Of a stretch of 6,988 bases of DNA, positions 1,989-6,988 are shown piece after piece. The translations under genes and the position numbers were made by a program. Position 1 is the first letter of the stretch; every line of letters begins with the position of its first letter. The stretch comes from Escherichia coli. Lineage in GTDB: Bacteria > Pseudomonadota > Gammaproteobacteria > Enterobacterales > Enterobacteriaceae. Below the pieces are notes generated by a model. That model was not told the DNA's origin and did no database searches. It saw only the letters and a program-made list of their open reading frames with translations. The DNA lies in NCBI RefSeq assembly GCF_024298765.1, contig NZ_CP101214.1. One strand, given 5' to 3'.

Positions 1989-2054
1989 TTGACATGGACA
2001 ATGCTGAGTAGTAGGTTTTACTGTATATAAAACCAGTGGTTATATATACAGTAT
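1989..2054 (+). promoter_or_regulatory. Colicin operon promoter with tandem overlapping LexA (SOS) boxes
   Basis: -35 TTGACA at 1989-1994, with a -10 candidate in 2009-2020. CTGTATATAAAACCAG (2021-2036) overlaps GTGGTTATATATACAG (2036-2051): the CTGT-N8-ACAG-type double SOS operator typical of colicin promoters. AAGAGG RBS at 2085-2090 precedes the ATG at 2096. Confidence 0.8.
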
Positions 2055-2095
2055 ATTGTTTTTAATTTATTGTTTTAATTATCAAAGAGGAATTT

Positions 2096-3742
2096 ATGGC
2101 TAAAGAACTAAGTGGATATGGACCAACTGCTGGTGAGTCTATGGGGGGAACAGGGGCGAATCTGAATCAGCAAGGTGGAAATAATAATAGTAATAGTGGG
2201 GTTCACTGGGGTGGTGGCTCTGGGCATGGTAATAATGGTGGTCAGGGAAATTCAAATTCATCTGGTTCTACATCAACTGTGATGAAAACCGGTGAGTCAT
2301 ATCTGACTCCGTGGGGTGATGTTGTCATTAATAATGATGGCCTTCCGGTGATGAATGGTATTGTTATGACAGAAGAGAATTCAACTCTGGTTGATAATCC
2401 ATTTGGAGGGGTCTCCAGAGTTCTTAATTCTTTAATTAGTGATATGCCATCACTTTTTGCAGAAAGCTCAGGAAATAACAACAATAACACTGCTTCAGTT
2501 AATACTGCACCAACGAATGCTCAGGTCAGTGATATGGATAAGAGTTCGAAGGTGGTGGGTAATGTAATTAATGAAAAACAAAAGCAGAAGAATAAAATTG
2601 CTACACAGATTAGTGAAAAACAGAAGAAAATCGAGGAGATGAAAAAAGTATTCAAGCATCATTCTTATCATGGTATCACTGATCTTGAGAGGGATGTTGA
2701 TGAGTTGCAAAAAAAATCAAATCAGCTTGATGCAGATATTAGCAAACTTAATTCTTATAAAAATACATTGCAAAGTAAAATTGGTGATGTGAATAAACAG
2801 AAGGAAGCTGAAGAAAAGGTTCGTGAAAATGCAGAGGTCGCTGAACATGAAACTCTTAATGAAGAGAAACAGGCGGTGGCGGAAGCAGAGAAGCGTTTAG
2901 CTGAGGCGAAAGCTGAACTGGCGAAGGCTGAAAGTGATGTACAGAGTAAGCAAGCTACTGTTTCCAGAGTTGCAGGAGAGCTTGAAAACGCTCAGAAGAG
3001 TGTTGACGTGAAGGTCACCGGATTTCCGGGATGGCGTGACGTTCAGAAAAAACTACAGCGTCAGCTTGAAGCTAAGCAGGCTGAGTACTCCGCAGTTGAA
3101 AATGAACTTAAGAATGCTGTTAGTTTCAGGGATGGTAAGGCCGCTGAGGTTAAAGAGGCAGAGCAGAAATTAAAAGAAGCTCAGGATGCTCTTGAAAAGA
3201 GCCAGATAAAAGATGCTGTTGATACTATGGTTGGATTTTATCAATATATAACCGAACAATATGGAGAAAAATACGCAAAAATTGCTCAGGATTTAGCGGA
3301 AAAGTCTAAAGGAAAGAAAATTCAAGGTGTTGATGAAGCTCTGGCAGCATTTGAAAAGTATAAGAATGTACTGGATAAGAAATTCAGTAAGGTTGATCGG
3401 GATGCTATTTTTAATGCGTTAGAGTCTGTTAATTATGATGAGTTATCTAAGAATTTAACGAAGATATCAAAGTCGCTTAAAATCACCAGTCGAGTATCTT
3501 TTCTATATGATGTTGGTTCTGATTTTAAAAATGCAATAGAAACTGGTAACTGGCGACCTTTGTTTGTCACGCTGGAGAAAAGTGCGGTCGATGTAGGTGT
3601 GGCAAAAATTGTGGCATTAATGTTTAGTTTTATTGTTGGTGTGCCTCTTGGTTTCTGGGGGATTGCAATTGTCACAGGTATTGTTTCTTCTTACATAGGG
3701 GATGATGAGTTGAGCAAACTTAATGAGTTGTTAGGGATTTAA
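2096..3742 (+). CDS. cka: Pore-forming colicin, most likely colicin K (548 aa)
   Basis: 548-aa ORF with a Gly/Asn/Ser-rich N-terminal domain (typical of Tol-dependent colicin translocation domains), a long charged coiled-coil central region, and a C-terminal domain with a hydrophobic helical hairpin ([35 protein letters not shown]) typical of pore-forming colicins. Length and N-terminus [15 protein letters not shown]... match my recollection of colicin K. SOS promoter upstream, immunity and lysis genes downstream. Confidence 0.85.
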
Positions 3743-4029
3743 TTTCTCTTTAGAGTGTAATATATGAAACTTGGCAATCCTACTGGGATTGCCATTAATA
3801 AATAAAACAATGCAGATAACTTGCATAAGTACCAGGGTTCTTTTTTTAACTTTGTATTTTCTTTGATATATCTAGATATGGTTAATTTAGAGTATGGATA
3901 TAGCAATACATGTATTGATGATATAAATATAAATAACAAAGGAGTGTTATCATTCTCGTTAAATATTAAAATAAGAATCCATGGTATAAGTGATTCAGGT
4001 AAATTATGTAGGTAGTATTTTAAATGCAT
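3739..4029 (-). CDS. cki: Colicin immunity protein (integral membrane, 96 aa), convergent with the colicin gene
   Basis: Minus-strand ORF immediately downstream of and opposite to the colicin gene, the arrangement typical of pore-forming colicin immunity genes. Very hydrophobic protein with several predicted TM segments ([35 protein letters not shown]). Its stop codon overlaps the colicin stop at TTAA 3739-3742. Confidence 0.85.
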
Positions 4030-4058
4030 AAGTATTTTTACTTTTGTTGGAAAGAAAT

Positions 4059-4190
4059 ATGAAAATAATAATTTTTCTAATTACAATATTATTCTTGTCA
4101 GGATGTCAAGCAAACTATATTCGTGATGTACAAGGAGGAACCGTTGCACCATCTTCGTCTTCTGAACTGACGGGGATCGCGGTTCAGTAG
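4059..4190 (+). CDS. ckl: Colicin lysis (bacteriocin release) lipoprotein, 43 aa
   Basis: ATG at 4059, TAG at 4188-4190; not in the ORF track because it is short. [43 protein letters not shown] has a signal peptide with an L-S-G-C lipobox and the conserved mature region of colicin lysis proteins. Last gene of the colicin operon. Confidence 0.85.
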
Positions 4191-4199
4191 AAAAGATCA

Positions 4200-4226
4200 A
4201 AGGATCTTCTTGAGATCCTTTTTTTC
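4200..4226 (+). terminator. Putative rho-independent terminator at the end of the colicin operon (overlaps the RNA II promoter)
   Basis: Inverted repeat AAGGATC (4200-4206) / GATCCTT (4214-4220) with a 7-nt loop, followed by a T-run (4219-4225), 10 bp after the lysis gene stop. Confidence 0.55.
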
Positions 4227-4249: not shown

Positions 4250-4352
4250 ACGAAAAAACCGCCTGGGGAGGCGGTTTAGTCGAAGGTTAAGTCAGTTGGG
4301 GACTGCTTAACCGGGTAACTGGCTTTAGTGGAGCACAGATACCAAATGCTGT
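4250..4352 (-). ncRNA. RNA I antisense copy-number control RNA (about 100 nt)
   Basis: Minus-strand promoter: -35 TTGAAG (complement of 4383-4388), 18-bp spacer, -10 TACACT (complement of 4359-4364), start near 4352 (ACAGCAUUUGG...). 3' end has a hairpin, AACCGCCT / AGGCGGTT at 4257-4276, followed on the minus strand by a U-run. Fully complementary to the 5' end of RNA II. Confidence 0.8.
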
Positions 4353-5430: not shown

Positions 5431-5778
5431 ATGATACCGGTGAAACGCGAAAGGATGCTCACGATACGGGTCACGGATGAGGAACATGCGCGGCTGCTGG
5501 CACGTTGTGAGGGAAAACAACTTGCGTCATGGATGCGTAAGGTCTGCCTGGGGGCACCGCCATCGAAAACGTCAGGTCTTCCGACACTGGCACCGCCGCT
5601 GTTGCGCCAGTTCGCTTCGGTCGGCAATAACCTGAATCAGATAGCCCGGAAGATAAACAGCGGACAGTGGTCGGGGCATGACCGGGTTCATGTGGTGGCT
5701 GCACTGATGGCCATCGGACGTGAACTGAGTGAGCTGAGGGATGAGGTCCGTAAACAGGGAGAACGGGATGATAGTTAA
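5431..5778 (+). CDS. mbeC: MbeC/MobC-family mobilisation accessory protein (likely ribbon-helix-helix)
   Basis: ATG at 5431 has GGAGG 6 nt upstream; a second in-frame ATG at 5455 (MLTIRVTDEEHARLLARCEGKQLASWMRK...) would give 107 aa. N-terminus matches the MbeC remnant I recall in pBR322. Divergent from rom; its stop region overlaps the mbeA start. Confidence 0.8.
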   Translation: MIPVKRERMLTIRVTDEEHARLLARCEGKQLASWMRKVCLGAPPSKTSGLPTLAPPLLRQFASVGNNLNQIARKINSGQWSGHDRVHVVAALMAIGRELSELRDEVRKQGERDDS

Positions 5779-6988
5779 GTTTCATGCCAGGGGAAAAGGC
5801 GGTGGCAGTGGTCCGGTTGATTACCTGCTGGGCCGGGAGCGTAACCGGGAAGGGGCGAGAGTTCTGCGGGGTGCTCCCGAAGAGGTGCGGGAACTCATCG
5901 ATGCCACGCCGTTTGCGAAAAAATACACCTCGGGGGTTCTGTCTTTTGCAGAGCAGACCCTGCCACCGGGAGAGCGTGAAAGGGTGATGGAGAGCTTTGA
6001 GCGGGTACTGATGCCCGGTCTTGAAAAAAATCAGTACAGCATCCTGTGGGTGGAGCACCAGGACAAGGGGCGTCTTGAGCTGAATTTTGTCATCCCGAAT
6101 ATGGAGCTGGCGAGCGGAAAACGGCTCCAGCCCTATTACGACCGAGCAGACCGTCCGCGAATCAATGCCTGGCAGACACTGGTGAATCACCATTACGGGC
6201 TGCACGACCCGAACGCACCGGAGAACAGGCGGACACTTGTCACCCCGAATAATCTGCCGAAAGCGAAACAGGAGGCCGCAGAAGCGATTACGAGGGGACT
6301 GGAGGCTCTTTACCATGCCGGAGCACTAAAAACGCGTCAGGATGTCACTGAGGCGCTTACAGCGGCAGGTTTTGAGGTTGTGAGGACAACCAGGAGCAGT
6401 ATCAGTATCGCCGACCCGGAGGGTGGGCGTAATCTCAGGCTGAAAGGGGCGCTGTATGAGCAATCTTTTACAAATGGGGACAGACTTCGAGAAGAAACTG
6501 AAAGAGCGTGCCGTCTCTACAGAGAACATGCTGAACAGCGAGTTCAGGAAGCTCGAAGCGTCTGTAGACAGGGAACTGAACTTAAACGGGCAGAAAATCA
6601 GAGACGCTATCAGCGCACACACAGCAGCGGTGAAAGAACAACTGGAGACGCTGAACAGTGCCGTGAACGCGCAGTTCAGCGCCACAGAGAACGAACTGGC
6701 CCGGCGGCAGGAAGAGCTGCTCTGGAAGCTGGTCAAAGGGCGGATACTGTACCCGTCGCTGACGGCGCTTTGCGTCACGGGCGGGATTTTTCTGGCGTCA
6801 TGGGGGCTGATTCAGTGGCAGGAAAGCCGGATTGCGGCGAACATCCTGGCTATCAGGGACCAGGAAGAGACGCTGGCGAAACTCCGGGAAAAAACATGGG
6901 GTGTGACGTATCACGAGGGCAGGAACGGGAAATTTCTGGTGTTGCCGTCCGGGGTGAAGGGGGAAAACAACTGGACGGTGGAGAAGAA
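5768..6988 (+). CDS. mbeA: MbeA/MobA-family relaxase, 5' portion (ORF runs off the window end)
   Basis: ATG at 5768 overlapping the end of mbeC. N-terminus MIVKFHARGKGGGSGPVDYLLGRERNREGARVLRGAPEEV is typical of ColE1-family (MOB HEN-type) relaxases. No stop in frame through 6988 (407 codons), so it is absent from the ORF track. Confidence 0.9.
   Translation, partial: MIVKFHARGKGGGSGPVDYLLGRERNREGARVLRGAPEEVRELIDATPFAKKYTSGVLSFAEQTLPPGERERVMESFERVLMPGLEKNQYSILWVEHQDKGRLELNFVIPNMELASGKRLQPYYDRADRPRINAWQTLVNHHYGLHDPNAPENRRTLVTPNNLPKAKQEAAEAITRGLEALYHAGALKTRQDVTEALTAAGFEVVRTTRSSISIADPEGGRNLRLKGALYEQSFTNGDRLREETERACRLYREHAEQRVQEARSVCRQGTELKRAENQRRYQRTHSSGERTTGDAEQCRERAVQRHRERTGPAAGRAALEAGQRADTVPVADGALRHGRDFSGVMGADSVAGKPDCGEHPGYQGPGRDAGETPGKNMGCDVSRGQEREISGVAVRGEGGKQLDGGEE
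6456..6988 (+). CDS. mbeB: MbeB/MobB-family mobilisation protein, nested in an alternate frame within mbeA (3' end beyond the window edge)
   Basis: ATG at 6456 (alternative in-frame ATG at 6474). MSNLLQMGTDFEKKLKERAVSTENMLNSEFRKLEASVDRELNLNGQKIRDAI..., with a predicted TM segment (ILYPSLTALCVTGGIFLASWGLI). Open to the window end. If the replicon is circular the frame would stop at window positions 26-28, just before mbeD. Confidence 0.65.
   Translation, partial: MSNLLQMGTDFEKKLKERAVSTENMLNSEFRKLEASVDRELNLNGQKIRDAISAHTAAVKEQLETLNSAVNAQFSATENELARRQEELLWKLVKGRILYPSLTALCVTGGIFLASWGLIQWQESRIAANILAIRDQEETLAKLREKTWGVTYHEGRNGKFLVLPSGVKGENNWTVEK

Follow-up and report, generated by a model that had tools for sequence, protein, structure and literature searches.

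Gene content of the plasmid

The window, by which we mean the whole stretch of 6988 bp that was analysed, matches many circular plasmids of 6988 bp from E. coli, Salmonella and Shigella with 99.9% identity and 100% coverage. The annotations of one 99.9% identical record include cka, cki, a lysis gene, rop, mobC, mbeB, mbeD and exc2, and Rfam recognizes an RNAI on the minus strand (4250-4350, 77.4 bits). A ColE1-type replicon (RNAI and rop) and an mbe mobilization region are found together here, as in pColK-type plasmids. Judging from its sequence, the window is a complete circular colicin K plasmid of the ColE1 type, which equals pColK-K235 minus the IS2 element of the latter.

The colicin genes follow one another on a short segment. 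The colicin K activity gene cka (2096-3742, plus strand) encodes 548 amino acids with a Pfam colicin pore-forming domain (8.9e-32) and a ColA_N domain, and corresponds to WP_011264160.1 in near-identical plasmids. The immunity gene cki (3739-4029, minus strand, 96 amino acids) matches PF17500 (CKI) over its full length (2.1e-56), and the colicin release (lysis) gene (4044-4190, plus strand; the RefSeq start is at 4059) matches Lysis_col (2.1e-24); the available annotation agrees with both assignments. A terminator-like stem-loop with a T-run, found by the terminator scan at 4199-4221 (plus strand), marks the end of the operon. This hairpin is symmetric, was called on both strands and lies only about 30 nt from the RNAI gene, which places the end of the colicin operon directly beside the replication control region.

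Some other frames deserve mention. A stop-to-stop frame of 542 codons runs on the plus strand from 5738 to 6988 and on into 1-375, crossing the ends of the window; it is taken to be the gene of a relaxase of the MbeA type, within which mbeB and mbeD lie in different frames, and its position across the junction explains its omission from both the list of open reading frames and the plasmid gene table. Two long minus-strand frames (5471-6316 and 6326-6778) had no Pfam match and are probably antisense artefacts. Directly upstream of the cka promoter lie two convergent and overlapping hypothetical ORFs, 1296-1574 on the plus strand and 1566-1856 on the minus strand, known in related plasmids as the hypothetical proteins WP_000710675.1 and WP_000047032.1. 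The pair sits where exc1 is found in ColE1-type relatives, and a longer version of the minus-strand ORF, starting at a TTG (1566-1883), had no Pfam match either.

The cka promoter and its double LexA operator

Direct reading of the plus strand upstream of cka places a perfect TTGACA at 1989-1994, the -35 hexamer of the SOS promoter of this gene, as had been claimed in a preliminary description of the locus. The -10 hexamer is TAGGTT (2012-2017, plus strand), separated from the -35 by a 17-bp spacer; it matches TATAAT at only three of six positions but keeps T1, A2 and T6. A generic consensus scan missed the cka promoter, as the scanner requires at least four matches out of six in the -10 and TAGGTT has three. 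The position of the -10 suggests that transcription starts 6-8 nt further on, at about 2023-2025 on the plus strand.

Three base pairs past the -10 begin two boxes of the LexA type, both readable on the plus strand: box 1, CTGTATATAAAACCAG (2021-2036), which is the promoter-distal one in the wording of the literature, and box 2, GTGGTTATATATACAG (2036-2051). They have the forms CTG-N10-CAG and GTG-N10-CAG, respectively, with A/T-rich centres, are offset by 15 bp and have a single base in common, G2036. Box 2 begins with G instead of C because the shared base already serves as the G that ends the CAG of box 1 and so cannot supply the C that opens a CTG. The corresponding 20-mers (2019-2038 and 2034-2053) are both enclosed in the span of 2019-2054 originally proposed for this element. 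The predicted transcription start falls inside box 1, so that the double operator would span about -5 to +30. The boxes lie 44 nt upstream of the cka start codon and are followed by an A/T-rich leader (2052-2095, plus strand) with a Shine-Dalgarno GAGG at 2087-2090, in which a TTG-TTTT block and a CAAAGAGG block are conserved in colicin promoters.

The resemblance of these boxes to LexA sites was evaluated in two ways. A loose pattern (CTGT-N8-ACAG with up to two mismatches) had 32 matches in the whole window, against 27.9 expected; this is near chance and proves nothing alone, for which reason a matrix was used instead. The symmetrised position weight matrix, derived from 28 LexA sites of the E. 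coli chromosome, gave 22.3 bits to box 1 and 17.0 bits to box 2, the two highest scores in the plasmid, followed by a third-ranked site at only 6.45 bits (about 6.5). Both values lie between the extremes of the training sites (13.5-26.0 bits). In 2000 dinucleotide-preserving shuffles, a site of the grade of box 1 appeared in none, one of the grade of box 2 in seven and a pair with the 15-bp offset in none. Box 1 is identical at 19 of 20 positions to the LexA site of recN.

Together, the two inverted boxes make up a 35-bp near-palindrome centred on G2036 (2019-2053), in which 32 of the 35 positions are self-complementary and two arms of 17 nt, 94% complementary, are separated by 1 nt. The outer half-sites of this palindrome (CTGT/ACAG) are strong and indeed perfect, whereas the inner ones (CCAG/(C)TGG) are weaker.

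The asymmetry between the boxes raises the question of whether both of them matter. One possibility is that only box 1 is functional and that box 2 is a by-product, for instance of a palindromic duplication, which adds nothing to repression. Box 2 indeed scores below box 1, and in relatives it reaches 11-14 bits, that is, the low end of the training range or less. Yet in the window it scores within the range of genuine chromosomal sites, published footprints and EMSAs found two LexA dimers on colicin operators including those of cka and cea8 (PMC4482635, PMC2994835), and according to Lu and Chak 1996, cited in PMC2994835, both boxes are needed for the viability of hosts of Col plasmids. Moreover, box 2 and the junction between the boxes, CCAGTGGTT, are invariant in nine divergent bacteriocin promoters whose flanks diverge. 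A second box without any role in repression thus appears extremely improbable, and a functional double operator is the preferred reading.

Conservation of the operator in bacteriocin promoters

The promoter of the window was aligned with those of colicins S4, E1, R, B and D, of a tRNase bacteriocin, of a plasmid with a lysozyme-like bacteriocin and of pesticin. TTGACA is invariant in all nine promoters, as are the TAnnTT columns 17 bp further on and the CCAGTGGTT junction; the -35, the TAnnTT hexamer and both boxes are conserved in those of colicins S4, E1, R, B and D, the tRNase bacteriocin and pesticin, all of which can be aligned. The preliminary description had found no obvious -10 and had looked for candidates in 2009-2020; this range does contain the hexamer, but its position can now be considered settled, since TAnnTT is conserved exactly 17 bp past TTGACA in relatives.

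A broader sample was obtained by scanning metagenomes, in addition to plasmids, with a degenerate operator pattern, which returned 139 instances in 77 distinct regions of 151 nt. In 75 of the 77, TTGACA is followed after 17 bp by TACTTT, TAATTT, TAGGTT, TAGCTT or TAACTT, and the gap between this -10-type hexamer and box 1 measures 2-6 bp. All 139 instances have a Shine-Dalgarno sequence and an ATG within 27-48 nt downstream, and when ten representative proteins encoded downstream were examined, nine proved to be bacteriocins of the colicin type (pore-forming, DNase, colicin D tRNase or lysozyme-like). The 141-nt promoter itself was matched by 1403 plasmid records. The operator is a shared regulatory cassette of enteric bacteriocin genes, and as such it is already in the literature.

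Several known systems help to situate the colicin K operator. The promoter of the colicin E1 gene (cea) of ColE1 aligns with it at 83% identity and shares with it TTGACA, the 17-bp spacer and the CTGTATATAAAACCAGTGGTTATAT-TACAG double box, whose members again overlap by one base; it counts as the original double LexA operator (PMC11332147, citing Ebina et al. 1983). It differs from the window by its -10 (TAGCTT), by a gap of 5 bp instead of 3 between the -10 and box 1, by a G at the equivalent of position 2046 in box 2, by the colicin that it controls and by the gene found upstream, which is exc1. In colicin E8 (cea8) and other nuclease colicins, two overlapping LexA targets located past the -10 block RNA polymerase, as in cka (PMC4482635), and the same operator core precedes E-type DNase colicins in the metagenome sample. 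The co-repressors are nevertheless different: the L-asparagine-responsive AsnC at cea8 and IscR at cka, cea8 not being bound by IscR and cka being little affected by AsnC (PMC4482635). The chromosomal recN, lexA, umuDC and ydjM also bind more than one LexA dimer per promoter, but their sites are separate and non-overlapping (PMC11332147). The inverted arrangement with a one-base overlap is characteristic of enteric bacteriocin promoters.

Two observations touch on the range of genes associated with this cassette. In a 15-kb plasmid (NZ_AP027214.1, 2001-4062), this promoter, lengthened by a C ahead of box 1, drives a pore-forming colicin of 490 amino acids with a different N-terminus (MDKVTDNSPDVE), and the next genes are colicin K immunity and lysis genes whose protein accessions are those of the ColK plasmid; this suggests colicin domain shuffling behind a constant promoter and immunity module. 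A scan of viral contigs for the double operator found only two loci, both on IMG/VR phage contigs (L013, 268-302, and L014, 5833-5867), where a similar overlapping pair (TACTGTATATAAAAACAGTGGTTGTTTGTACAGTA) lies ahead of a phage gene for a 62-aa protein (phrog_698, function unknown). Within 60 nt upstream of the double operator, neither contig has a TTGACA. The double-box architecture is thus not limited to bacteriocin genes.

Comparison with pColK-K235

The closest experimentally studied relative of the window is pColK-K235 (NC_006881.1 / AY929248), the plasmid used by the Zgur-Bertok, Butala and Busby groups. Outside of IS2 both backbones are collinear and 99.6% identical. The IS2 is present only in pColK-K235, about 220 bp upstream of the -35; its insertion point corresponds to positions 1769-1774 of the window, and it breaks the hypothetical ORF 1566-1856 of the minus strand. 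Besides IS2 there are 27 small differences, several of which are indels of a single G or a single C and perhaps reflect mistakes in the older sequence. The two plasmids share the -35, the -10, both boxes, the leader and the start codon, the cka protein accession is the same in near-identical plasmids, and 228 of the 231 positions of the promoter region are identical.

The promoter core holds three of the 27 differences, which are the only detail that is new here, a minor one. pColK-K235 has an additional T in the stretch that separates the -10 from box 1 (the T-run is at 2015-2018 in the window), a C for T2026 and a G for A2046. The two substituted positions are dyad-related, each of them 10 nt from G2036, and both substitutions bring the window toward the LexA consensus: its boxes score 22.3 and 17.0 bits, versus 19.8 and 14.1 bits in pColK-K235. 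Among the plasmid records that match the 141-nt promoter, 12 are at least 99% identical to it and 81 are 95-99% identical, which indicates that both alleles circulate.

The paired nature of these substitutions calls for another explanation of the palindrome to be considered, namely that it mainly acts as a nucleic-acid hairpin (a stem at the 5' end of the mRNA, a terminator that stops read-through or a cruciform) and that LexA binding is secondary. The base pair between 2026 and 2046 is kept both with the T/A of the window and with the C/G of pColK-K235, paired haplotypes dominate among the 77 distinct regions (C/G in 46, T/A in 14 and T/G in 11), and the full palindrome folds as RNA with -14.6 kcal/mol (z = -4.3). 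However, a transcript that begins at the predicted start, 2024, keeps a weak hairpin of -5.2 kcal/mol (z = -1.2), which does not appear in the centroid fold of the leader, and five distinct regions carry the C/A haplotype, which does not pair; a 5' mRNA hairpin was accordingly rejected as the main function of the palindrome. Furthermore, its stem is almost all A/U and was not called by the terminator scan, and dyad symmetry is in any case expected from two inverted palindromic protein sites. The association between haplotypes is itself confounded by shared ancestry; shared ancestry, or selection on LexA affinity, is a more likely cause of the T/A versus C/G association than mRNA pairing. A primary role as a hairpin consequently seems very improbable, and a protein-binding operator is retained as the explanation of the palindrome.

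Repression by LexA and additional regulators

The literature on pColK-K235 gives functional content to the elements described above. PMC4482635 (summarising Butala 2012) and PMC2994835 report SOS inducibility and the binding of LexA to both boxes for the cka of pColK-K235, an allele that differs from that of the window at the three core positions, and PMC4482635 locates the binding "just downstream of the -10". The identification of the element as the double overlapping SOS operator of a colicin promoter, put forward in the preliminary description, is in this way corroborated: its boxes have the two highest scores of the plasmid, the genes downstream of it encode a bacteriocin, its immunity protein and a lysis protein (according to both Pfam and the annotation of a near-identical plasmid), and the same architecture has been published for cka (PMC4482635, PMC2994835). 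It is very probably the SOS promoter-operator of the colicin K operon, with a colicin-type double overlapping operator. This assignment draws on the sequence elements themselves, on their statistically exceptional and conserved character, on the genes around them and on the near-identity with a promoter studied by experiment. The element is real and ordinary, and it is already described in the literature.

The following scenario, in good part taken from that literature, would account for its operation. Sigma-70 RNA polymerase would recognise the -35 (TTGACA, 1989-1994) and the -10 (TAGGTT, 2012-2017), with transcription starting near 2024. Two LexA dimers, sitting on the inverted 16-bp boxes that share G2036, would occlude the promoter and exclude the polymerase, as known from published work; with the box centres 15 bp apart, the geometry would put the dimers on roughly opposite faces of the helix. 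Upon DNA damage, RecA-stimulated self-cleavage of LexA would allow the transcription of cka and, by read-through, of the lysis gene. The doubled operator would provide very tight repression, which would suit a gene whose expression ends in the lysis of the producer. IscR would keep the promoter closed for a while past SOS induction, until nutrients run low.

The degenerate left half of box 2 had been interpreted as a sign that LexA binds cooperatively. Cooperativity is a fact of the literature: PMC11332147, with reference to Gillor 2008 and Ebina 1983, describes the promoter-proximal box as less canonical and LexA as binding both boxes cooperatively, at the same concentrations. Yet the sequence of box 2 does not demand it, let alone prove it, since a score of 17 bits is within the range of stand-alone chromosomal sites.

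The preliminary description had also considered the lack of an obvious -10 to be consistent with a need for additional input beyond derepression. In its strongest form this would mean that the promoter requires a positive activator besides the loss of LexA, a model with which the match to TATAAT at three of six positions is congruent, as are the dependence of cka on growth phase and the positive effect that ppGpp has on it (PMC4675545, citing Kuhar and Zgur-Bertok 1999); nutrient depletion acts on cka as well. Against it, the -35 is perfect, the spacer length of 17 bp is optimal and the -10 retains its three most important positions. In a lexA-defective strain, about 98% of the cells with gfp fusions to the promoters of other colicin activity genes fluoresce intensely (PMC2994835). 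Above all, the extra regulator that has been identified is a repressor: IscR binds the cka promoter fragment, delays induction and was suggested to stabilise LexA there, and the deletion of iscR raises the amount of colicin K, measured one hour after induction, by a factor of 100 to 125 (PMC4482635). The dependence on an activator is in consequence rather unlikely. Additional input is real, in the form of IscR and nutritional signals (PMC4482635, PMC4675545), but it comes from a second repressor and is not forced by a weak -10; relief from LexA, delayed by IscR, is the reading favored here.

A search with the type-2 IscR consensus yielded 13 matches in the window, where 15.4 are expected by chance; none of them is in the core promoter and the nearest one (1935-1959) has two mismatches. 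Since positions 1881-2110 are identical to pColK-K235 outside the operator, the published IscR site should be present. A perfect 6-bp inverted repeat, TCCATG-N7-CATGGA (1980-1998), straddles the -35; the ColK and ColS4 promoters conserve it, other promoters only in part. It might be a protein site, possibly for IscR; it was considered in that role and set aside, given its lack of conservation outside ColK and S4.

Implications

For the most part, the element matters little beyond correct annotation: it is a textbook case of a suicidal gene kept under very tight SOS repression, and a near-identical plasmid has already been dissected experimentally. The practical value of the analysis lies in recognising that the window is an entire colicin K plasmid and in placing its promoter, its operator and its likely transcription start. 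The operator alleles leave room for a further hypothesis. The higher matrix scores could mean that the operator of the window is a naturally tighter colicin K switch than the pColK-K235 allele on which the published experiments were made, a proposal that we regard as doubtful, although conceivable. If it were true, co-circulating ColK plasmids would differ in the threshold of induction, in its delay or in the proportion of cells that produce colicin, and polymorphism of the operator would offer a means of tuning what this production costs. The one lead of potential use, operator variation among otherwise near-identical ColK plasmids, could serve to probe how the strength of LexA sites sets the fraction of cells that sacrifice themselves.
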